Shown piece by piece: positions 46,688 through 57,932 of a stretch of DNA of 64,000 nt; positions within the stretch are counted from its first letter, which is position 1, and each line of letters begins with the position of its first letter. This DNA is from an uncultured bacterium (lineage in GTDB: Bacteria; Actinomycetota; Acidimicrobiia; Spongiisociales; UBA5794). The DNA is taken from positions 416,001 to 480,000 of the forward strand of contig CAWDDT010000004.1 of assembly GCA_963801165.1 (NCBI GenBank). Reading direction: 5' to 3'. The translations under genes were made by a program, and so were the position numbers. The notes beneath the pieces are model-generated. The model did not search any database and was not told the origin of the DNA. It saw only the letters and a list, made by a program, of their open reading frames with translations.

Positions 46688-46730
46688 GGCGTCCCGGGAG
46701 GATTCGAACCTCCGATACCCGGTTTAGGAA
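46688..46730 (-). mobile_element. tRNA-Arg(CCU) 3'-half fragment (att junction)
   Basis: Near-identical to 51404..51447; similarity ends in the anticodon loop. Confidence 0.85.
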
Positions 46731-46929
46731 CGTGTTGCAGCCGAATCCCTGGGTGCTCATGTAGGGCCACGAATAGCTGGGGGTTCCCATCCGAAATGTT
46801 GTCGATTCGCCCCATATTCATTGAGGAATCAACAACTTGGGTTGTTGTTCGGCGTGTCGAATTCGCTGGTTTCTCAGGCCTGCGAAGTGCCCAAGATTCT
46901 CCATGCCGGTTGCTGCGCGGCTACTCCTT

Positions 46930-47020
46930 CCATATTTTGAGACGCATCTCAACCCAGTGTTTGGGGATCAGCGCATCATTGACATTGCGCAACCGGCGGT
47001 TCAGAGCGTTGTTGCGGCTG
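46930..47020 (+). pseudogene. Tyrosine integrase core-binding domain remnant
   Basis: YFETHLNPVFGDQRIIDIAQPAVQSVV resembles the equivalent segment of the two other integrases here. Confidence 0.45.
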
Positions 47021-47188
47021 GGAGCGCCGAGCGCGCTCCTCAGACCCGATCGACAAAACGATTCTCTTGCGGGCAACGGTCAACGGATAGCGCACCCAGC
47101 GTGTGCCTTCGGGGTGGCTGCCTCGACAACCGGTCGCACGAACGACTTGAAACAACGGAGGGCGGTACCGCCGCACTCCCCTCCGATT

Positions 47189-47596
47189 TCAGCCCCACAC
47201 GAGCACGAGGATGGCTGCGACCACTACGAACAGTGTCGAGTACTCCATCCCCCATAGGGCTACCGGTGACCCGTCGCCGATGATGAACACCAGACCGGCG
47301 AGGGTGGCCGCGATGGTCGCGGCCGCCGTCACCCCGGTGGCGACACGCCGGCGGGTGTCGGGGAGCCGCAGCGTGTAGACGAAGCTTCCGGTGCTGAGCC
47401 CCACCAACAGGAGGCCGATTGCGATGTGAAGCCCGAGGTCCCGGTGGCCGAACGGGGGACCGCTCATCAGGGCGGATCCGAGAAGACCCTCCCACACCAC
47501 GAGGATGAGGATCACGAGCGCCAGGATCCTGAGCACTGTGTTCTTCTGCCGGCGGACGTTCACGCCGGTGGGCTGTGCGGATTGGTGCTCGGTCAT
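47189..47596 (-). CDS. Small 4-TM membrane protein
   Basis: Four hydrophobic segments; ATGA-coupled to the TetR gene. Confidence 0.65.
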   Translation of the reverse strand: MTEHQSAQPTGVNVRRQKNTVLRILALVILILVVWEGLLGSALMSGPPFGHRDLGLHIAIGLLLVGLSTGSFVYTLRLPDTRRRVATGVTAAATIAATLAGLVFIIGDGSPVALWGMEYSTLFVVVAAILVLVWG

Positions 47597-48222
47597 GGGA
47601 ATGGTCCTTTCGTCGCGTCGGCCCGGATAGGCAAGTCGATGCCGAGGATCCGCCACACGGAACGGGTGAGCGCATGTAGCGCATCGTCAGGGCTCATTCG
47701 CCCGCCTCCGACTTCGTTTGCGGCCGCGTGGGTCAGACTCATGAGCGCGGCCACGATCCAGTTGGCTGAGAGGCGGGGGTCGAAGTCGCCGGTGCGTTGG
47801 CCCCGTTGGATCAGCGGCACCAGCCGATCGAGGATCGGGCCATGCCCCGTCTGCTCCTCCTCGGGTCGCATCGGGAGCGTCGGCAGCGTGAATACCCGGT
47901 TCTCGATGGAAGTATCCCAATTGGTTTCGATGAATCGCTGCAGCGCAGCGGCGGGAGGACCTTCATTTAGCGTGGCGCGGTCCAGCGCCGTGATCGCTCG
48001 GTTCAACGTGCGCGTCAAAACGGCACGGATCAGCTCGTCTCTCGAGGGGTAATGGGAGTAGACGGTTTGTCGAGCCAAACCTGCGGCTCGAGCGATGTCT
48101 TCGATGGTTGCGTCGGGCCGCTCGCCAAGCGTCTCGGCGGCGGCATCGAGAATCGACTCCATGTTGCGCTCGGCGTCCGCACGGAGCCGGCGAGCTGGCG
48201 TATGTGATGTGTTCGAGGACAT
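47593..48222 (-). CDS. TetR family regulator
   Basis: RADAERN...IARAAGLARQTVYSHYPSRDEL. Confidence 0.92.
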   Translation of the reverse strand: MSSNTSHTPARRLRADAERNMESILDAAAETLGERPDATIEDIARAAGLARQTVYSHYPSRDELIRAVLTRTLNRAITALDRATLNEGPPAAALQRFIETNWDTSIENRVFTLPTLPMRPEEEQTGHGPILDRLVPLIQRGQRTGDFDPRLSANWIVAALMSLTHAAANEVGGGRMSPDDALHALTRSVWRILGIDLPIRADATKGPFP

Positions 48223-48423
48223 GAGTGTCTATGTTAACAGCGTGATGTGTCATTCTAGCGAGCAAATTCGAGTTAACTACGACAGCCTCGTCTAAGTTAT
48301 CGTCGACCATGATCGAAGCGTGGCCGGGACCGTCGTCACTCGAGATACAAGATGGGATTGACCTTTCGACTCCCTCCGCGATTCCCGACCGATATTCCAC
48401 CGACGCAGATCTCCAGTGTTTTC

Positions 48424-48492
48424 AGCGCCCGGGAGGATTCGAACCGCCTTCACCGTCTTGGGAGACCGGTTCGCGTAGGTTTAGGAAACCGG
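48424..48492 (-). mobile_element. Two adjacent tRNA-derived att relics
   Basis: GGTTTAGGAAACCGG (48478..48492) plus a diverged 3' half containing CCCGGGAGGATTCGAACC. Confidence 0.7.
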
Positions 48493-48686
48493 CCAGGACA
48501 CTTTCCGGTGTCTCTCGTCGATTGTCGTCTTCTGCGAGATCGTCAATGTTTACGGGGGATTCCCACCGATTCGCTGAATGCGGCCTTTGCGTCGTTTTGT
48601 GTCGTTTCTCGACCTGTGACGGACCGTTGAAGCGAGATTTGCTGATAGGGGTTCAATCGGTCTCTCGTTACATGTAACATCAGAGC

Positions 48687-48908
48687 ATGGCTACACCCCA
48701 AGAGAGGTCTTCCGTCTCGAATCGAGTACGCAACTACCGCAAGCGGATGCGGGCACAAGGAATGCGGCCAATCCAGATCTGGGTGGCGGACGTCCGCTCT
48801 CCGGACTTCGCTGCTGAAGCACACCGCCAGGCCGCGGCCGTCGCCAACAGCAAGCACGCCGCCGACGATCAGGCATTCATCGATGCGCTCAGTGTCGACG
48901 ACAAGTGA
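48687..48908 (+). CDS. MazE-like antitoxin (DUF3018-like)
   Basis: RVRNYRKRMRAQGMRPIQIWVADVRSP.F..EAHRQ; GTTACATGTAAC palindrome upstream. Confidence 0.88.
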   Translation: MATPQERSSVSNRVRNYRKRMRAQGMRPIQIWVADVRSPDFAAEAHRQAAAVANSKHAADDQAFIDALSVDDK

Positions 48909-49237
48909 GACGCTCCGAGGTCTGGACGGCCGCAGCCGGGACTGGCTACAGCGGCAAACCGCGGCTCGTCGTGATCATTCAGGACGACCGGTTTGATGCC
49001 ACCGACTCGGTGACGGTGTGCGCTTTCACCACTGACCCGACAGAGGCGCCGCTGATCCGTCTCCCCGTTGTGCCCGATGAGCAGAACGGTCTTCGCGAGA
49101 CAAGCAGTCTCATGGTCGACAAGATCACAACCGTTCCCCGATCCAAGCTTGGTGAACGAATCGGCCGCCTAGCCGACCAAGACATGCTTAGGCTCGGGCG
49201 TGCCGTCGTGGTGTTCTTCGGACTGGCAGGCGACTGA
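48905..49237 (+). CDS. mazF: PemK/MazF family toxin
   Basis: GKPRLVVIIQDD, NGL..S.LMVDKITTV...LGERIG. Confidence 0.92.
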   Translation: MRRSEVWTAAAGTGYSGKPRLVVIIQDDRFDATDSVTVCAFTTDPTEAPLIRLPVVPDEQNGLRETSSLMVDKITTVPRSKLGERIGRLADQDMLRLGRAVVVFFGLAGD

Positions 49238-49361
49238 CCACTCCAACCATGGCGTGAAGCCCTGCAAACGCGATACAGGATGTCAACGGTCAGTGTTCGC
49301 CCAGCAAGCGGATACGTGAGGATCTCGCTCACTCGAGAAACTGATCGTTATCACCCGATAT

Positions 49362-50206
49362 TTGTTGTATGTGCTTCCTCGCTTTGCTCGGGCATCCCTG
49401 GGGAGCATTCAGGCCGTTGACATCCGGGAGTGGTTGGCAGACCTCGATCGTTCGGGTCTGTCGGCGTCGCGAATCCGGCAGGCGTACTTCCTGCTGGCGC
49501 AGATTCTCCGCTCGGCCGTCGAGTCCGGTCATCTGGCGAAGGACCCGTGTGTCGTGGTGAAGCTTCCGCGCATGCAGGTACCCGAGATGCGATTCCTGTC
49601 CGTGGAACAGGTCGAGGCGCTGGCTTCAGCCATTCGTGAACCGTATGGTGTCCTTGTCAACACCGTTGCCTACGGCGGTCTGCGATGGGGCGAGGCGGTA
49701 GCCCTGGACGGGAACGATGTGAGCTGCTGCGTTCCCGGGTCCATGTGGCGGAATCGCTCTCCGAGACCTCCGAAGGGCTTCTATTCGGTGCCACAAAGAC
49801 ATATCAGCGCCGAACGGTGGTGATACCGGGATTCCTCCGGGATCAACTGGCGGAGCATCTGGCGACTCGCGTCGAAATCGCCGAGGATGCACTCGTCTTC
49901 ACCTCCCCAGGCGGCGAGCCCTTGCGCCGAGGCAACTTCAGCCGGCGGGTGTGGAAGCCCGTGCTCGCGGCAGCGCGTCTTGACGTTCGGCCGCACGAAC
50001 TCCGCCATACCTGTGCCGCGCTGCTCATCGCCGAGGGGGCGCATCCCAAGGCGGTGCAGGCTCAGCTCGGACACTCGTCGATCCAGGTCACTATGGATCG
50101 GTACGGGCATCTGTTTCCCTCTGCCGCTGAGGAGCTCGCTGGTCGTCTGGATGCTGTGCATCGACGGAAGCAGACGCTCGAGACTCCGGGGATTTCTATT
50201 GCATGA
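49362..50206 (+). pseudogene. Tyrosine integrase, N-truncated and frameshifted (~49710)
   Basis: GGLRWGE, then a frame change; HELRHT, LGHSS, TMDRYGH. Confidence 0.85.
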
Positions 50207-50247
50207 AAGAAACAAGTGTTCGATTTATGACGGGTGTTTGTTATCAT

Positions 50248-50877
50248 ATGGACATGGATTTCGTTCGACCCGTTGAGGCAATCGTTCCCGGTGTCCAGGG
50301 CCGGGTTCTGTCCGTGCTGGCGGAGACAACTGCCGACCTCAACATGAGGACGATCGCTCGTCTCGCTGATGTCAGTCTGGCGCAAGCCTCGCGCGTGCTG
50401 GCGCGGTTGGTCGACCTTGGCGTTGTGGAGCGGCGTGACGTGCCTCCTTCGTCACTCTTTCGTCTGGTTCGCCAGCATGTGGCCGCGGGTCCGTTGCTTG
50501 CTTTGGCGAGAGGCCGGGATGCGTTGATAGGCGAGATGGGGCGCCTCGCGGCCGGGCTCCCTGTGGTGCCCTTGTCGGCGATTGTCTTCGGATCCTTTGC
50601 GCGAGGCGAGGCAGATATCGACAGCGACATCGACATGGTGCTCGTCCGCCCCGCGGGTGTCGATGAGTCCGACGAGTCGTGGTGGGAGGCGGTCGAGCAG
50701 TGGCGGACTTCGGTGCGCCGGGCTAGTGGCAACCGGGTTGAAGTCCTCGAGGTTGGCTCCGACGAGGTCGCAGCGTTGCTGAACAGCCGGCGGCAGGTAT
50801 GGCGTGACATTCGGCGCGATGGCCTGGTCGTGCACGGCCTGAGCCTCGCCGATCTCAAGGATGGATCACGTGGCTAG
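50248..50877 (+). CDS. HTH plus minimal nucleotidyltransferase (MNT antitoxin)
   Basis: N-terminal HTH; FGSFARGEADIDSDIDM. Confidence 0.88.
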   Translation: MDMDFVRPVEAIVPGVQGRVLSVLAETTADLNMRTIARLADVSLAQASRVLARLVDLGVVERRDVPPSSLFRLVRQHVAAGPLLALARGRDALIGEMGRLAAGLPVVPLSAIVFGSFARGEADIDSDIDMVLVRPAGVDESDESWWEAVEQWRTSVRRASGNRVEVLEVGSDEVAALLNSRRQVWRDIRRDGLVVHGLSLADLKDGSRG

Positions 50878-51276
50878 GAGCGGGCGAACCCGGTCCGTCA
50901 CGGCGAGTCAAGCGCGGCGGTATCTGGCGAAGGCCGAGGAGTACGTTGAGGCGCATCCAGCGAACTCGACGCTCAACGGGGCATCGCTGCGACGGGTCTG
51001 GCCATCCATGCCGCGATCAACGCTGCCGATGCCGTGTGCGGTGTCCGCCTCGGGGAGCGAGCCGTCGGCGAGGATCACGATGAGGTGCTCGTACTGCTGA
51101 AGACGGCCGGCAAGGATGGTGTCGAAGTTGAGAAAGAGCTTCGACGGCTACTTCCGTTGAAGACCAAGGCTGAGTACGACCCCGACAATGTCTCGCTCCC
51201 GACGGCATCAAAGGCAGTTGCGCGAGCGCAAAGATTCGTCGCAGTCGCTCGACGTGTCGTGGCGTCGCTGAGGTGA
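50870..51276 (+). CDS. HEPN-domain protein (frameshift ~50953)
   Basis: YLAKAEEY, AIHAAINAADA, GEDH, LKTKAEY; paired with the MNT gene. Confidence 0.75.
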
Positions 51277-51405
51277 TTCGCGGCTTGTCGGCGGCGGCTT
51301 CCAACGAACTCTGACGGACACTAGACGGACAGTACGGGCTCTAAGCGTCGCTGTGGGCATCGCCCGAAATGCCGATATCCGTTCTCACACAGCGAATACC
51401 TGAGG

Positions 51406-51478
51406 CGCCCCCGGGAGGATTCGAACCTCCGACACCCGGTTTAGGAAACCGGTGCTCTATCCCCTGAGCTACGAGGGC
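51406..51478 (-). tRNA. tRNA-Arg(CCU)
   Basis: Full 73-nt cloverleaf GCCCTCG-TAGCTCAGGGGATAGAGCA-CCGGT TTCCTAA ACCGG-GTGTC-GGAGG TTCGAAT CCTCC-CGGGGGC-G; CCA not encoded. Confidence 0.97.
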
Positions 51479-51484
51479 GAAATA

Positions 51485-52633
51485 TCAAGAATAGCCCGAA
51501 AAATCAGCCTTTCCGGAGTCCTCGGGTAGGGCAACAATGTTGTCAGATGTGCGCTTGGGCCGCACCTGGGCCGCACTGTAACGAGCATCCATCGATTCTG
51601 CGAGGCTATCGAGGTCGTCTTCGAACAGATGAGCGTACCGATCGAGAGTGATCTGCGCCGACGAATGGCCCAGCATTCTTTGCACCGCTTTCACGCTCGC
51701 GCCGGCCGAGATCGCCAGACTTGCCGCCGTGTGTCGCAAGTCGTGGGGCACGAGATCGCCAAGCCCGAGGTCGGCCACTGCAGGCTTCCACACCCTCCGC
51801 AAGAAGTTCGGGGAACGGAGAGGTTGACCGGTCGACGATGCGAACACGAGATCGCCGCCGGCGAGCGTAGGAGCCAACTCGTCCATCAGAAACCTCGGGA
51901 TCACAATCGTTCGGGACCGATGCGACTTCGGAGTGCCCCAGACGAGCTTGCCGTTGACCAGGGTGGCCGATTCCCTCACATAAACCCGGTGCCGCAAGAC
52001 ATCCACGTTGTCCGACCTGAGCGCCACCGCTTCGCCCCAGCGCAGGCCACCGTAGGCGAGGAGCTTGACCAGCTGGGCACCTCCACGCATCCTCTGCTCC
52101 ACCGCATCGGCCAGCTCGGTCACCTGCGTCGCGGTCAGATACCGTTGGTCCCGTTCGGCCGTCTTGGGCACTTTCACCGTCTCTGCCGGATTCCGCCCGA
52201 TGAGGCCGTCATCCACTGCTTGCGTCAGCACCGCGGAGACGACCCGTTTCGCCTGGCCCATCCGCGACGCCGAAAGCCCGTCCGCGGCCATAGCGGCGAC
52301 CCACGCCCTGAGGAAGTCCGGGTTGATCCGTCTCAGTTCGACGGAACCCAGCGCAGGCAAGATCCGTGAATCGAGCAACGAGCGGTAGCCGGCGATTGTC
52401 TTTGGCTTGAGGACGAGGCCTTGAAACCATTCCTCGGCATAGTCTTCGAATCGAACGGCGCCGGCACTCGGGTCAACCCACAGACCGCGGTCCTGCTTCT
52501 GGAGCTCGTCGCGCAGCCATCGCTCGGCATCGACCTTGCGGTCGAACGCCCTCGAGTGTTCCCGCCCGTCAGGGCCCCGGTACCCAGCCCGCCACGGTGT
52601 GGGTCGATCAGGTCGTTTGCGAATCCATCCCAT
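51485..52633 (-). CDS. Tyrosine integrase
   Basis: Arm-binding N-terminus (WRAGYRGPDG..SRAF); catalytic motifs GLRWGE, PKS, HDLRH, LGH, DRY. Confidence 0.95.
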   Translation of the reverse strand: MGWIRKRPDRPTPWRAGYRGPDGREHSRAFDRKVDAERWLRDELQKQDRGLWVDPSAGAVRFEDYAEEWFQGLVLKPKTIAGYRSLLDSRILPALGSVELRRINPDFLRAWVAAMAADGLSASRMGQAKRVVSAVLTQAVDDGLIGRNPAETVKVPKTAERDQRYLTATQVTELADAVEQRMRGGAQLVKLLAYGGLRWGEAVALRSDNVDVLRHRVYVRESATLVNGKLVWGTPKSHRSRTIVIPRFLMDELAPTLAGGDLVFASSTGQPLRSPNFLRRVWKPAVADLGLGDLVPHDLRHTAASLAISAGASVKAVQRMLGHSSAQITLDRYAHLFEDDLDSLAESMDARYSAAQVRPKRTSDNIVALPEDSGKADFSGYS

Positions 52634-52689
52634 TAGAACTCCGGAGCGTAGCCGTCTGTTGTGACGGCGGACTAGGCGAAGACATCTGT

Positions 52690-52878
52690 TCATCGGTCGG
52701 CCCTCTTCTGGTTCTCGATCCACTCCGCGACGTCGGTCCACTGGTAGCGGATGTGCCTTCCCACACGGAACCCACGTGGTCCTTCCCGGCGATACCTCCA
52801 CTGATACAGCGTCGTCGCCGGAACGCCGAGATAAGCGGCGAGGTCGTGCACGGTGAGCAGCCGGTCGCGAGGTGTCAT
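52690..52878 (-). CDS. Excisionase-like HTH protein
   Basis: LLTVHDLAAYLGVPATTLYQWR...GP...VGRHIRY. Confidence 0.9.
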   Translation of the reverse strand: MTPRDRLLTVHDLAAYLGVPATTLYQWRYRREGPRGFRVGRHIRYQWTDVAEWIENQKRADR

Positions 52879-52894
52879 GACCCAATCGTCTGCT

Positions 52895-53052
52895 CCGACC
52901 CTGTCATCAGCCTGTTATTTCGTTGCACCTGGACCTGTCATTGGGTCGGAAACGCTGATTTGGCGGGCGAATTCGACGGGTGGGCCTTTTCGTTATCGCG
53001 GCCGGCTGGGACCCCAATGACAGGGTAGATGGCAACGAAATAACAGGGTCGG
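52895..53052. repeat. Long imperfect inverted repeat between xis and the relaxase
   Basis: CCTGTTATTTCGTTGC/GCAACGAAATAACAGG and CCTGTCATTGGG/CCCAATGACAGG. Confidence 0.8.
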
Positions 53053-53230
53053 CACGTCTACTCACGGGTATGAGACCGCCGACAGGCCCCAACCATCGCC
53101 GAAGATCCCGCTACGGCAATCCTCAAGCCGACACGACCATGGTCGCCGCCACGGCACTGGTACCGCTTCGACTGTACCGACGGCCTGATCGACACACGCA
53201 TCTGCAACCAGTTGCTTCAGGTGGTGTTCC

Positions 53231-55975
53231 GTGTTGAGTCTGGCGAAGGCGGTCAAGGACTACTACCTGCAGAAGCTGGGTGAGATCTCACCACGGGAGG
53301 ACTACTACCTACGGGGCGGTACGGCGACCGGTCGTTGGTGCGGCTCGGGAGCCGCCGAACTCGGTCTCACGGGTGCCGTGTCGGCGGAGGGTTTGGTGCG
53401 GCTGTTTGACGGGAACCATCCCGACACGGGCGAACAGCTGGGTCGCCGTCTCCGTGAAGACGGGGTGGCGGCGTGGGATGTGACCTTCTCGGCGGACAAA
53501 TCGGTGTCGCTGTTGTGGGCGTTGGGTGACGAACTGACCCGCAAGGAAGTCGTCGAGGCGTTCGAGGAAGCAACGTCACAAGCATTCGAGTATCTGGAGT
53601 CGGTAGCCTCATTCACTCGCGGCGCCACCAAGACACCGATCACCGACGAGAACGGGAACCCGGTCCGTGGCCCGAATGGTCGGCTGAGGTATCGGGTGGA
53701 GACCTGGCCGATAGCGACATCGGGGTATGTGGCGGCGGCGTTCACCGAGTACACGTCACGGGCCGACGACCCACAACTGCACACCCATGTCGTCGTTGCC
53801 AACAAGGTCAAAGGCGCCGATGGGGTGTGGCGCACCATCGACGGCCGCCTGTTGTATCGGCATCAGCTCGCCGCCGGCTACCTGCACGAGGCGGTACTAC
53901 GTCGCGAGTTGACCCAGCGGTTGGGGGTGCGGTGGCAGCCGATACACCACGGTGTCGCCGACATTGCCGGGTTCACCCTTGGCCAGATCGAGGCGTTCTC
54001 GCAGCGGCGCCGACAACTCGAAACCTGGCGACAGGAAGAGAGTCTTCCGGATACGGCGGCGGCGCGGCAGGTAGCGGTGATCGCTACCCGCACCGCCAAG
54101 ACCAACCGCTCTCTCGACGAGCTGGAAGAGGTCTGGCAGCGACGAGCCGTAGAGGTCGGTCTCACCCCAGAGAGGATCGGTCGGATTGTCAATCGGAGCA
54201 TGGAGGTCACGTCACCCGACCGTGAAGCACTGTTTGCGGACCTGGCATCACCAGACGGGCTCACCGCACACAAGTCGACATTCGCCGTACCAGAGGTCAT
54301 CCAACATGTCGCCGCTGCACTCCCCGAGGGAGGCACCCGGACCGAGATCGAAGCCCTCGCCGACACATTCCTGAAGGGCAGCGACATCATTCCGCTCCTC
54401 CCCAGCCCGCAACTCGAACCCCCAGCTCAAGCCGGAACGAACTCGCTTGCCGAGCCGAACGGCCGACAGCTCGTCGATGAGGCACGGGTGCCTGTGATGC
54501 GTACCCGTCGCGGTGAACCGTTCCCCGCACCGACCCTGCCCAGCTACACCACCGCCGAGCTCCTGGCCACCGGGCAGCGGATCGTCGACTACGCAATGGC
54601 CGGCGTCGGTCAGGGTCGTTGGCAGGCACCGCACCGGCTCGTTGAAACGTGGCTACGCAACAGACCGGAACTCACCGACGGGCAACGCCAGATTGTGCGC
54701 AGCTTCGCAACCTCCGGCAACACCGTCGATATCGGTATCGGTCCTGCCGGCAGTGGCAAGACCGCCGTTGTCGCCGTCGTCAACCAACTCGCCCAACTCA
54801 CCAGACGACCCATCATCGGAGCTGCCCTCGCCGCTCGCACCGCATCCGGCCTCCAAACCGACACCGGCGTCCCCTCCACCACCCTCGCCCGACTCCTCAG
54901 CCGAGCCCAACACGGATCCAGTCTTCCTACCGGTGTGGTGGTGGTCGTCGACGAAGCTGGCATGGTCGGCACCCGGCAGCTCGCTGCCGTCGTCGATCTT
55001 GTCGACCAAGCAGATGGCAAACTGGTCCTGGTCGGGGATGACAAGCAACTCCCCGAGATCGACGCCGGCGGTCTGTTCCGTGCCCTCGCCATGAGGCTGC
55101 CAGCCGTCGAACTCACCGACAATGTGCGTCAGCAGGCGGCCTGGGAACGCCAAGCACTCGACGAGCTCCGCAACGGATCCGTACAACAGGCAATGCAGGC
55201 CTATGTCGAGCATCGGCGTCTCGTCCTCGGCCGCAACCGTACCGATGCGGTCACCAGAGCCTGTGCTGACTGGTATCGGTACGTCCGGTCATCCGGCGAG
55301 ATAGGTTCGGCGCTGCTCATCGCCCACGACAACGACACCGTCACCCAACTCAACGAAAAGGCACGACAGCACCTCGCCGCCTCCGGGCACCTCCACGGAC
55401 CCACACACCAAGCGGCAGGCATCGTGCTCCAGGCTGGTGACCGGATCCTCTGCCGCCGAAACCGATATGAGCTCGATGTCCTCAACGGCGACCTCGGCAC
55501 CATCACCGTCGTAGACCAGGATGCGGGAACGGTCACCGTCCGTCTCGACCGAGACCCCGAAACCCGAGAGCTACCGGACTGGTATCTCAACGACGCGAAA
55601 GTCGGCTACGGATACGCCCTCACCGCCCACAAAGCCCAAGGCATCACAACCGGGCGCACCTTCACCGTCATCACCGGAACCACCGACCGGGAATGGGCCT
55701 ACGTCGCCCTCAGCAGAGGCCGCAACGCCAACACCCTCTACCTCGCATCTCCCGAACCCGGCCACCAGGAATGCTCCCACCTCACCCACCAGACACGGCA
55801 GCAGAGAGCTGATGCTCCTTGTGCATTCCTCACCCGCAGCAGGGCACAGATCGCGGCTACCGACAGAGAAGAACCGCGAGGGGCAGGTCTCTTCGTTGTT
55901 GTTGGCCACGACGGGGCAACCTGTGCGCGCCGGTTGACACAGTCCCGCCCAGGGTTGCCGGTCTTCGGTTGGTAG
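53231..55975 (+). CDS. MOBF (TrwC-like) relaxase-helicase
   Basis: DYY twice, DVTFSADKSVS, TSRADDPQLHTH; SF1 motifs GPAGSGKT, DEAGM, GDDKQL, HKAQG, YVALSRGR. Confidence 0.93.
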   Translation: MLSLAKAVKDYYLQKLGEISPREDYYLRGGTATGRWCGSGAAELGLTGAVSAEGLVRLFDGNHPDTGEQLGRRLREDGVAAWDVTFSADKSVSLLWALGDELTRKEVVEAFEEATSQAFEYLESVASFTRGATKTPITDENGNPVRGPNGRLRYRVETWPIATSGYVAAAFTEYTSRADDPQLHTHVVVANKVKGADGVWRTIDGRLLYRHQLAAGYLHEAVLRRELTQRLGVRWQPIHHGVADIAGFTLGQIEAFSQRRRQLETWRQEESLPDTAAARQVAVIATRTAKTNRSLDELEEVWQRRAVEVGLTPERIGRIVNRSMEVTSPDREALFADLASPDGLTAHKSTFAVPEVIQHVAAALPEGGTRTEIEALADTFLKGSDIIPLLPSPQLEPPAQAGTNSLAEPNGRQLVDEARVPVMRTRRGEPFPAPTLPSYTTAELLATGQRIVDYAMAGVGQGRWQAPHRLVETWLRNRPELTDGQRQIVRSFATSGNTVDIGIGPAGSGKTAVVAVVNQLAQLTRRPIIGAALAARTASGLQTDTGVPSTTLARLLSRAQHGSSLPTGVVVVVDEAGMVGTRQLAAVVDLVDQADGKLVLVGDDKQLPEIDAGGLFRALAMRLPAVELTDNVRQQAAWERQALDELRNGSVQQAMQAYVEHRRLVLGRNRTDAVTRACADWYRYVRSSGEIGSALLIAHDNDTVTQLNEKARQHLAASGHLHGPTHQAAGIVLQAGDRILCRRNRYELDVLNGDLGTITVVDQDAGTVTVRLDRDPETRELPDWYLNDAKVGYGYALTAHKAQGITTGRTFTVITGTTDREWAYVALSRGRNANTLYLASPEPGHQECSHLTHQTRQQRADAPCAFLTRSRAQIAATDREEPRGAGLFVVVGHDGATCARRLTQSRPGLPVFGW

Positions 55976-56081
55976 GCGACGTGGCAAGGTTGATGGCGCG
56001 CTGAGGTGTGCTCGAGCACCGGTGCCACCGTGCCATGTGCGACACTGACGTCGGTCGACGCTTGGCACCGGCGGGTGCCTG

Positions 56082-56882
56082 CTATTGGTCGGTGAGGACG
56101 CAGAGCGCGAACGGGTAACCGTCGATGAGTTCGGCGGGTCCGAGGACGTCCGGGCAACGGTGGGTCCACTCGTCGATCGTGTCCTCGTAGCCGGGTGGTG
56201 CAGGGCCGTTGTTGACCATACCCCAGGAGGTCCAGAGACGTTGTGAACAGCTGAAACCACCGTCGGCGGTCGCGACGTCTATGCCGCCGTCTTCGGTATA
56301 GACGGTGAAGTTCATCGTGGCAGCCAGTTCGTCGGCGATACCGCTTGTCGAGACGATCAGCGAGCGGAGCACGAAGCTTTCGTCGCGGCTGGCCCGATCC
56401 GTCAGGTAAGCGGCCAGAGTGGCCCTGTCGAACGACTCGGGTTGGATTCGGGGCTGGCTGTCACCTGTGATGGAGAAGAACAGGAACCCGCTCTCCGCGA
56501 TCTGGCTCTCGGCGGCGGCCGGATCCGAGGTCAAGTCTGACAGGAGCCGCTGCGACGATTCAGCCACCGTAGTGGCATCACATTCGCTCGACGCAGGAGC
56601 GGCTGAGACCGGTGCCGACGTGGTGACGACAGTCGTGTTGGCCGACATTGTGGTCGCGGTCGGTCCAGTCGTGGTGGTCGCAGATGTGGCGCCTGCGGAT
56701 CGAGGCAGCTCAGCCGTGTGCGTAATCCAGAGCATCGAGCCAACGAGCGCGACTGTCACGAACGCGGCAAGTGCGAATACCTTCAACCGTCCTCTCGCAT
56801 GGGGTGGCTGCGGTACCGGTACATCCTCGAGCCGTGCGTTGAGACGAGATCCCGCCCGAAGTAGTTCATCGTCGAGGCTCAT
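56082..56882 (-). CDS. Membrane-anchored putative anti-sigma factor
   Basis: Short cytoplasmic N-terminus, one TM, Thr-rich linker, Cys-containing outer domain; overlaps the sigma gene end. Confidence 0.75.
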   Translation of the reverse strand: MSLDDELLRAGSRLNARLEDVPVPQPPHARGRLKVFALAAFVTVALVGSMLWITHTAELPRSAGATSATTTTGPTATTMSANTTVVTTSAPVSAAPASSECDATTVAESSQRLLSDLTSDPAAAESQIAESGFLFFSITGDSQPRIQPESFDRATLAAYLTDRASRDESFVLRSLIVSTSGIADELAATMNFTVYTEDGGIDVATADGGFSCSQRLWTSWGMVNNGPAPPGYEDTIDEWTHRCPDVLGPAELIDGYPFALCVLTDQ

Positions 56883-57426
56883 CCTCGTTACCTCCTATTC
56901 CGAGACGCTTCGCCAATGTCTGCTTGGCGCGGCTGAGATGGGTCTTGACTGTTTCGTCGGAACAACCCAACACCTCGGCCACTTCTCGCCGAGACATTCC
57001 GCCCAGATACACGAGTGCCACTGCCTGCGCCTGTCGGTGAGGCAACCGCCGAACCTCACGCCATAGGTCAAGCCGGGCTTCAATGTCCAGCCCTGGATAG
57101 CTCGTGGGCGTGGAAGCGAGACGTAGCAGTGCACGAGCCCGGGACCTAGCTCGACGCAACCACGAAACCGAGCTGTTCGTCACCACCGTTCGTACCCACG
57201 CACCCGGATTATCCATCTGACACACCCTGTGCCAATTGCGGAGCGTCGCCACAAACGCTTCCTGCGCCAACTCTTCGGCCACGGCTTGGTCGCCCGAGAG
57301 CACGATTGCCAGCCCCAGCACCTGGCGGTACTGGCGGCGATAAAACGTCTCGAAACTCTCGCTAGCTCTCACCAGCGGCAGGTCATTCACCCGACTCAAC
57401 TCACTCCATGTCCGAATCGTTGCCAC
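56866..57426 (-). CDS. ECF RNA polymerase sigma factor (paralog of 790..1338)
   Basis: Regions 2 and 4 present; colinear and highly similar to the left copy. Confidence 0.93.
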   Translation of the reverse strand: MATIRTWSELSRVNDLPLVRASESFETFYRRQYRQVLGLAIVLSGDQAVAEELAQEAFVATLRNWHRVCQMDNPGAWVRTVVTNSSVSWLRRARSRARALLRLASTPTSYPGLDIEARLDLWREVRRLPHRQAQAVALVYLGGMSRREVAEVLGCSDETVKTHLSRAKQTLAKRLGIGGNEDEPRR

Positions 57427-57776
57427 GCCTAATAAAACGCATCAGCGACATCATTTGGGGGACATCATCGCGAAAGAAGGCCAGAAGCCGGCTTGCGGGA
57501 TCTGCTACCGCTGCGCCACCTACAGGCGATGCACCCAATGACCGGGCTAGCTACCCAACACACCGCGCCAGTTCGTCGGCCAGTAGCATCTCTCCGCTGC
57601 GGGCTTGGGCCGCACCTGGGCCGCAACGGACGTGAGAACATGAGAAATGATGAAAGACGATGAGAGGCGAAATCGCCCGGAAAATCAGGCTTTCCGCCGG
57701 TTTGCCCTGGTAGACAAAGACCCCCAAAACGGTTTAGGAAACCGGTGCTCTATCCCCTGAGCTACGAGGGCGAAAT

Positions 57777-57932
57777 GTCAAGAATAGCCCGAAAAATCAG
57801 CCTTTCCGGGATCCACGGGCAGGTCCACAACATCGTCGGATATGCCCCTGGGCCGCACCATAACGAGCATCCATCGACTCTGCTAGGCAATCCAGGCCAC
57901 CTTCGAACAGGTGTGCCAACCGACCTAGAGTG
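57777..57932 (-). pseudogene. C-terminal remnant of a related integrase
   Basis: LGRLAHLFEGGLDCLAESMDARYGAAQ versus LDRYAHLFEDDLDSLAESMDARYSAAQ; DNA colinear with ~51484..51650. Confidence 0.85.

Follow-up and report, generated by a model that had tools for sequence, protein, structure and literature searches.

A mirror-image integrative mobilizable element at the single-copy tRNA-Arg(CCT) gene of an acidimicrobial genome, with a candidate tRNA start signal in its integrase tail

Where does transcription of a tRNA gene start when an integrase gene ends six nucleotides in front of it and the DNA farther upstream belongs to a mobile element? This question is raised by a 64,000-nt stretch of DNA (contig 4, positions 416001-480000; hereafter the window) from genome G000, an assembly of 4.55 Mb in 13 contigs that is 98% complete. 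The window holds one tRNA according to ARAGORN, an intact tRNA-Arg(CCT) at 51404-51478 on the minus strand (Rfam RF00005, 66.2 bits), which is single-copy among the 48 tRNAs of the genome. It is preceded on its own strand by the integrase gene of an integrative mobilizable element, whose nearest public loci, found in the search for relatives of the integrase, come from metagenome-assembled genomes of Acidimicrobiia.

The first 42 bases of the tRNA (51437-51478, minus strand), comprising the acceptor 5' strand, the D arm and the anticodon stem-loop, are one copy of a direct repeat (D1) whose other copy lies at 57730-57771, on the same strand and 6293 bp upstream in the direction of the tRNA. 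The alignment of the two copies is identical at 42/42 positions. The partial copy at the far end consists of bases 1-42 only, with element DNA next to it, and the intact tRNA stands at the integrase end. An earlier sequence-only reading of this DNA had described the duplicated segment as the 5' half of the tRNA through the anticodon arm, and the exact repeat bears this out. The tyrosine integrase (51488-52633, minus strand) has 382 aa when read from MGWIRK, which is the start chosen here from an open frame reaching up to 52885, and carries the Pfam domains Phage_integrase (PF00589, 6.3e-23), Phage_int_SAM_3 and Phage_int_M. Its stop codon TGA at 51487-51485 is followed by the spacer TATTTC (51484-51479) and by tRNA base 1 at 51478, and the distance of 6 nt given in the earlier reading is therefore correct. 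Directly upstream of int lies xis, encoding an excisionase-like HTH_17 protein of 62 aa (52690-52878, minus strand; PF12728, 1.1e-12), and divergent from xis is the gene of a MobF/TrwC relaxase fused to a RecD-like helicase (914 aa, 53231-55975, plus strand; TrwC 2.1e-76, AAA_30 1.2e-49). The presence of the TrwC relaxase makes the element an integrative mobilizable one. The region 51437-57771 is one such element of 6293 bp, with integrase and relaxase and without a mating-pore or coupling apparatus of its own.

According to the proposed mechanism, recombination would have joined the element, in mirror-image orientation, to the anticodon stem-loop of the single tRNA-Arg(CCU) gene of the host. 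The circular attachment site (attP) would have had the order integrase tail, tRNA bases 1-42 beginning 6 nt past the stop, and far arm, and the working tRNA after integration would be a chimera of an element 5' part and a host 3' part. More than 6 kb upstream of the tRNA are entirely element DNA, and tRNA bases 1 to about 35 together with all upstream sequence are element-derived. The crossover region is probably the anticodon stem-loop, positions 27-42, because this is where the 5' and 3' fragments of the tRNA in relatives overlap: 5' blocks stop at position 41-44, and 3' fragments of the same tRNA begin at position 27. Fragments of the 5' half only (positions 1-3 to 41-42) are present in at least 12 of 41 related genomes, and 3'-only fragments, mostly of positions 27-75, in at least 8. 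Repeat, alignment and attP anatomy support the earlier claim that the 5' half of the tRNA, along with its upstream region, is provided by the element. No second copy supplies this tRNA, as the gene is the sole tRNA-Arg(CCT) of the nearly complete genome. We consider the layout alone, an element in mirror orientation in tRNA-Arg(CCT) which supplies the 5' part and the upstream DNA, very probable.

As the upstream DNA is all element, the element has to supply the transcription of the tRNA, which we infer must start in element DNA. The start would most likely lie a few bases past TATTCT (51493-51488, minus strand), a -10-like TANNNT hexamer made of the last two codons of int (TAT-TCT) and ending 9 nt before tRNA base 1. 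Read-through from xis-int would be an unavoidable second input, since the gap is too short to hold a terminator. With the element in place, the integrase tail would serve as the upstream region of the tRNA and would be kept while the rest of the element decays, an interpretation suggested by the retention of such tails in relatives. Comparisons within and between genomes support this role of the hexamer. TANNNT ends 6-16 nt before base 1 in 27 of the 48 tRNA genes of G000, with a mode of 10, and its background in the genome is 0.0014 per position. Among the element-free tRNA-Arg(CCT) loci of relatives, 10/14 have their own TANNNT at 8-13 nt (8/12 without two unpublished genomes, L022 = G038 and L025 = G027), and none of these 14 upstream sequences resembles that of the window. 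Native sequence before the displaced tRNA halves in relatives has TANNNT at 9-14 nt in G024, G007, G025, G004 and L041, and at 24 nt in G017. Moreover, the 16-nt block TTCGGGCTATTCTTGA around TATTCT is invariant in 5/5 tails of the window's junction type (type A: the window, a fossil tail in the window, the G005 integrase, the G005 fossil and G008), and the neighbouring bases vary. Three of these five tails no longer encode an integrase. In G008 a 65-codon tail fossil (51% identical) is all that fronts the intact tRNA; the 11-nt repeats described below have degenerated in it, TATTCT is preserved, and the nearest gene upstream runs in the opposite direction.

Other observations weigh against a start at TATTCT. 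The commoner junction, type B (...ACCAAGGGTTTCRTAACAATTT; L008, L016, L036-L043 and L046), is without TANNNT at 6-16 nt in 11/11 sequences, and junctions of related integrases with tRNA-Ser(TGA) are without it within 150 nt in 4/4, so that the family as a whole appears not to depend on the hexamer. Neither a -35 nor a full sigma-70 match was found in 51200-53300, and no TG precedes the hexamer. The RNA contigs of run X20 show nothing at the int-tRNA junction. One TANNNT in an AT-richer stretch of 11 positions has a chance of about 0.2 by a rough estimate from local composition, and since a single TANNNT is not improbable by chance, the weight of TATTCT as a promoter comes from the comparisons. 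The three dead tails, in turn, may be conserved simply through youth. Many actinobacterial promoters do without a -35. The missing hexamers of the type-B and Ser(TGA) junctions are what would be expected if the tRNA were made only by read-through from xis-int, with RNase P freeing it 6 nt past the int stop and TATTCT being nothing but Tyr-Ser codons. The co-directional order of xis, int and tRNA with 6 nt from stop to tRNA conforms to this explanation as well, and because tRNA-Ser(TGA) is the sole full copy in G123, G275 and G081, the elements there must feed their tRNA in some other way than through the hexamer. However, G008 has lost the integrase body and xis, and its upstream gene faces the other way, but both the tRNA and the TATTCT block have survived undamaged there; the block does not vary among tails that no longer code; and integrase genes are usually weakly expressed. 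We consider read-through as the only source of the tRNA rather unlikely. TATTCT is a plausible and moderately supported candidate, the best one for the start signal in the window element, and across the family xis-int read-through or an unrecognised signal must also serve. The proposal of a promoter inside int is accordingly sustained in part: the hexamer is present at 9 nt, matches the native spacing and lies in an invariant block, but it comes without a -35, and the other two junctions do without it. The whole explanation, layout plus tRNA start at TATTCT, seems to us somewhat more probable than its negation.

A promoter would not be needed if the tRNA behind the integrase were poorly expressed or dispensable and AGG were read by tRNA-Arg(UCU). 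A tRNA-Arg(TCT) gene is indeed present on contig 13, and the CCU isoacceptor of E. coli is non-essential. However, the tRNA-Arg(CCT) gene has a normal tRNA score and matches that of G005 with 100% and those of element-free relatives with 99% identity, AGG outnumbers AGA about twofold in long frames (6.1 vs 3.1 per 1000), and the parallel architecture at Ser(TGA) sits in the only tRNA able to read UCA by the usual decoding rules, all of which makes a poorly expressed or dispensable tRNA highly improbable. The sequence next to the tRNA offers a further reading, in which the motif there (51490-51515) would be an intrinsic terminator of int, with hairpin and T tract, and neither a protein site nor part of a promoter. 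Terminator-like matches exist at 51517-51495 and 57810-57788, but such matches are no more numerous than in shuffled sequence, the fold has a z of -1.1 with 27/200 shuffles as good, the stem requires several G-U pairs, and type-B junctions are without an equivalent hairpin. We regard a terminator at this place as improbable. As to the suggestion that the arrangement stabilises the element end, the integrase-tail fossils retained in G008, G005 and the window give it anecdotal support.

The integrase tail also appears to carry one arm of attP. A pair of 11-nt repeats of the GTGCGGCCCAG type (repeat D3) is found in the P arm at 51543-51575 (minus strand), inside the coding region of the tail and about 85-108 nt before the tRNA, and a pair of GCGGCCCA 11-mers of the same repeat is found in the P' arm at 57593-57625 (minus strand), about 105-135 nt beyond the core. 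The P-arm 11-mers are kept in relatives with a copy number of 1 to 4, also in Ser(TGA)-type tails, and those of the P' arm are conserved in L041, G005, G024, G007, G025, G004 and G017. The natural reading of the 11-mers is that they are candidate arm-type integrase sites. Their copy number is 2 in the window tail, 4 in L039 and 1 in the window fossil (57844-57870). As 11 is not a multiple of 3, a change in copy number shifts the integrase frame, and the C-terminal residues, about 35 in number, differ in frame among relatives. This stretch is therefore unlikely to matter as protein and makes more sense as a set of DNA sites. Another possible -10 is a TAYNNT conserved in 16/16 aligned tails about 108 nt upstream (in the MDARY codons); the 11-mer repeat, however, begins with the last T of this hexamer, so that its conservation needs no promoter to explain it.

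The sequence-only reading had also pointed to a motif, CGGAAAG(G/C)CTGATTTT(T/C)CGGGC(T/G)ATT, as a possible accessory-factor site. All three copies are present on the minus strand, at 51490-51515 (CGGAAAGGCTGATTTTTCGGGCTATT; it could form a weak hairpin ahead of a T-rich tract), at 57671-57696 in the P' arm (CGGAAAGCCTGATTTTCCGGGCGATT) and at 57783-57808 in the fossil tail. The first and the third, however, belong to homologous integrase tails and are not independent of each other. Only the copy at 57671-57696 is independent, and a role as an accessory binding site is possible. A link between int transcription and AGG translation, suggested in the same reading, fared worse. AGG makes up 7/382 codons of int and 3/63 of xis (10/445 together), and long frames of the genome have about 6.1 per 1000; among the integrase genes, AGG per 1000 codons is 10.7 in the Arg(CCT) type (13 genes), 14.7 in the Ser type (4 genes) and 7.9 in the others (31 genes). 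The AGG use of the Arg(CCT)-type clade is not distinct from that of relatives targeting other tRNAs, and a specific link was rejected.

The DNA that precedes the displaced tRNA half is the dead tail of an earlier related integrase and not native host DNA. This fossil, at 57772-57932 (minus strand), matches 51479-51650 with 82-89% identity and an 11-nt deletion (repeats D1 and D2); it keeps a TATTCT-TGA-CATTTC junction, and the same fossil is found in G005. Downstream of this tRNA, at 46693-50206, tRNA-fragment matches and Pfam revealed the remains of ordinary 3'-type islands. They comprise displaced 3' fragments of tRNA positions 32-69 (46693-46730, minus strand, 97%) and 26-72 (48425-48490, minus strand, 81%), and a degraded integrase identified with Pfam (49685-50206, plus strand), which is 47% identical to int. 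G005 is without 47778-51404. By these matches, one tRNA gene has been used by islands from both sides. The remnant region, 46693-51404, also holds a MarR/nucleotidyltransferase fusion (50203-50877) and a TetR gene (47593-48222).

How widespread the junction is can be seen from the relatives of the integrase. The search of public genomes returned 42 integrase loci, 11 of them with at least 75% identity, and in 10 of these 11 the tRNA-Arg(CCT) follows the gene directly and co-directionally. The gap from stop to tRNA is 5-7 nt in L036, L037, L038, L040, L041, L043 and L046; L039 and L044 have a shifted frame, L042 ends at a contig edge inside the tRNA, and L048 is an integrase fragment without tRNA. 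In L045 the integrase is 51% identical and the tRNA 6 nt past its stop is tRNA-Ser(TGA). An integrase homologue (E <= 1e-40) is present in 79/301 sampled genomes of the class. Of the 30 loci fetched, 6 carry a co-directional tRNA 6-7 nt past the stop (3 Arg-CCT, one of them in the window, and 3 Ser-TGA), and 10 belong to the ordinary 3' type, with integrase and tRNA convergent. In 4 others a tRNA stands upstream of the integrase start, in 7 the flanks of 1.5 kb are free of tRNAs, and 3 lie at a contig edge. Two loci from unpublished genomes, L087 and L106 (G279 and G238), enter only these counts and the tree, and no claim is based on them, or on L022 and L025, alone. The integrase family is thus mostly ordinary, with two mirror-image lineages. 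Within G000 itself, four of five paralogous integrases, 42-52% identical, are convergent with tRNA-Ser(TGA), -Lys(TTT), -Thr(TGT) and -Val(TAC); the four genes (C5:592498-593589, C9:443595-444713, C4:408117-409232 and C1:73882-74982) likely mark further islands of ordinary type.

The second mirror-image lineage, at tRNA-Ser(TGA), comprises L045, L086, L089 and L090, all with the stop 6 nt before the tRNA. In G123, G275 and G081 this is the only full copy of the tRNA, and G081 has a displaced fragment of bases 1-44 (C1:1533-1576). The Arg and Ser 5'-type clades are not sisters in a quick maximum-likelihood tree, and the approximately unbiased (AU) test rejects one clade (p 0.002), for a group that was named after the tree had been seen. 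The N-terminal 65 residues of the Ser-type integrases are nevertheless 75-78% identical to those of the window, compared to 37-70% in other relatives, whereas the remaining domains of the Ser type are 42-53% identical, and the pair of GCGGCCCA 11-mers is found in Ser-type tails as well. Having this N-terminal domain and the arm repeats in common suggests mosaicism, and a shared arm module with mosaicism is as likely as two independent origins. A joint reading, which we offer as tentative, is that an Acidimicrobiia integrase lineage evolved a fused module in which integrase tail, P arm and tRNA leader or promoter are the same DNA. The stop would be fixed 6 nt before the tRNA, and the module would be common to the targeters of Arg(CCU) and Ser(UGA). 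Host tRNA supply would come to depend on element DNA, the tail would be kept as a permanent promoter after the death of the element, in an exaptation of the recombination arm, and 3'-end formation of the integrase mRNA would be tied to RNase P.

Islands with a displaced 5' tRNA fragment and an attP centred on the anticodon are said to have been first described by Zhao and Williams in 2002 (J Bacteriol 184:859, cited in PMC6563490), and the matter of promoter supply was reportedly raised in the papers of that year. In the literature searched, no paper was found that cites Zhao and Williams together with "promoter". Table 1 of the Islander paper (PMC4383910) counts 3919 islands, of which 159 have a 5' tDNA fragment and 3760 a 3' one. 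The window element has what Islander looks for, a full tDNA with a cognate 5' fragment upstream in the same orientation and a tyrosine integrase inside, and its 6293 bp fall within the range of 2-200 kb. With the 5'-fragment islands as that source presents them it shares the intact tRNA, the direct cognate fragment upstream, the internal tyrosine integrase and the restored 5' part; it differs from them, as described there, in the distance of 6 nt between the integrase stop and tRNA base 1 and in the position of the P arm, within the coding tail of the integrase. In the portion of Panis et al. 2010 drawn on here (PMC2951348), SIT (same orientation, integrase before tRNA) and OD (the divergent shape) together make up less than 8% of 1273 integrase-tRNA pairs, and SIT integrases are predicted not to be autoregulated. 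Gene order and orientation of the window element are those of SIT, but that survey, in the same portion, treats shapes only and does not address transcription of the tRNA.

Lambda/L5-type tyrosine integrases of actinobacteria, as outlined in PMC10865867, use arm-type sites and a common core of 30-45 bp over the 3' half of a tRNA. The lambda-like domain layout, the repeats flanking the core and, probably, the centring of the target on the anticodon loop are the same in the window element as in that outline, whereas the polarity of attP is reversed, with tRNA bases 1-42 in place of about 27-76. The tRNA-dependent lysogeny of Cluster K4/L mycobacteriophages, described in the same source, likewise leaves the host dependent on element DNA for tRNA function. 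There, by that description, the tRNA is destroyed and complemented by a separate phage tRNA gene, whereas in the window the gene is restored, with replacement of its 5' part and upstream DNA only. The class of element is rare but already catalogued. The new details are the 6-nt junction at two tRNA specificities, the arm sites in the integrase tail, the fossil tails fronting a tRNA, and the use of one tRNA from both sides.

The locus is a natural comparative example of a mirror-image tRNA island that meets a promoter problem which ordinary 3'-type islands avoid. The two junction types, the dead integrase tails fronting a tRNA and the parallel case at an essential tRNA-Ser provide material for such comparison. 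If the integrase tail is truly the promoter, the decay of these elements would be constrained and their last 50-200 bp would become regulatory DNA of the host. For annotation, a single tRNA gene can have islands on either flank, and 5' fragments should be taken seriously and not discarded as noise.

The rest of the element is cargo and sequence of putative function. A gene of an extracytoplasmic function (ECF) type sigma-70 factor (56866-57426, minus strand; Sigma70_r2, Sigma70_r4_2 and Sigma70_ECF in Pfam) is overlapped at its end by the gene of a 266-aa protein with one hydrophobic segment and no Pfam match (56082-56882, minus strand), a putative anti-sigma partner. The remaining submitted open reading frames in 51485-57727 correspond only to xis, to sigma or to no Pfam family. 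The sigma gene and its membrane partner (56082-57426) lie directly downstream of the displaced tRNA half and its upstream -10 and are co-directional with them. A displaced promoter driving cargo fits the window in this respect, but the adjacent genes in L041 are on the other strand, and it was rejected as a family trait. A perfect 16-nt inverted repeat (52911-52926 and 53032-53047, arms 105 nt apart) between xis and the divergent relaxase gene is a candidate origin of transfer (oriT) or operator. In G005 the tRNA, int, xis and relaxase form a backbone of 87% nucleotide identity with a far arm of 92%, and the cargo is a different one of 8.7 kb; L041 has int and a broken TrwC relaxase, with AbiEi, Fic and PRiA4_ORF3 as cargo. 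The three belong to a family of integrative mobilizable elements with exchangeable cargo.

The search of sequencing runs covered 20 runs, all as Logan contigs and one of them RNA, and 4 were compared with the locus. In the assembled contigs of X1, X2, X5 and X20 (contigs in place of raw reads, one RNA run) there is no joint across the 6293 bp, no circle junction, and nothing that spans the int-tRNA junction. The RNA run, X20, a salt-marsh metatranscriptome, contains an identical contig of 246 nt in the 266-aa gene and one of 234 nt in the sigma gene.

A second, unrelated kind of 5'-half repeat was observed at the same tRNA in G012 (C75:1816-4268; L012, L112) and also in G011, G006, G010 and G009 (L115-L118). 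In this kind, identity ends at position 41, and the far arm differs. In G012 the interval of 2.4 kb encodes a 441-aa protein without Pfam match and no integrase, and the duplication reaches upstream of the tRNA (GGAGTTAAGCTACGCAGCC), so that it carries along a copy of a native-like -10.

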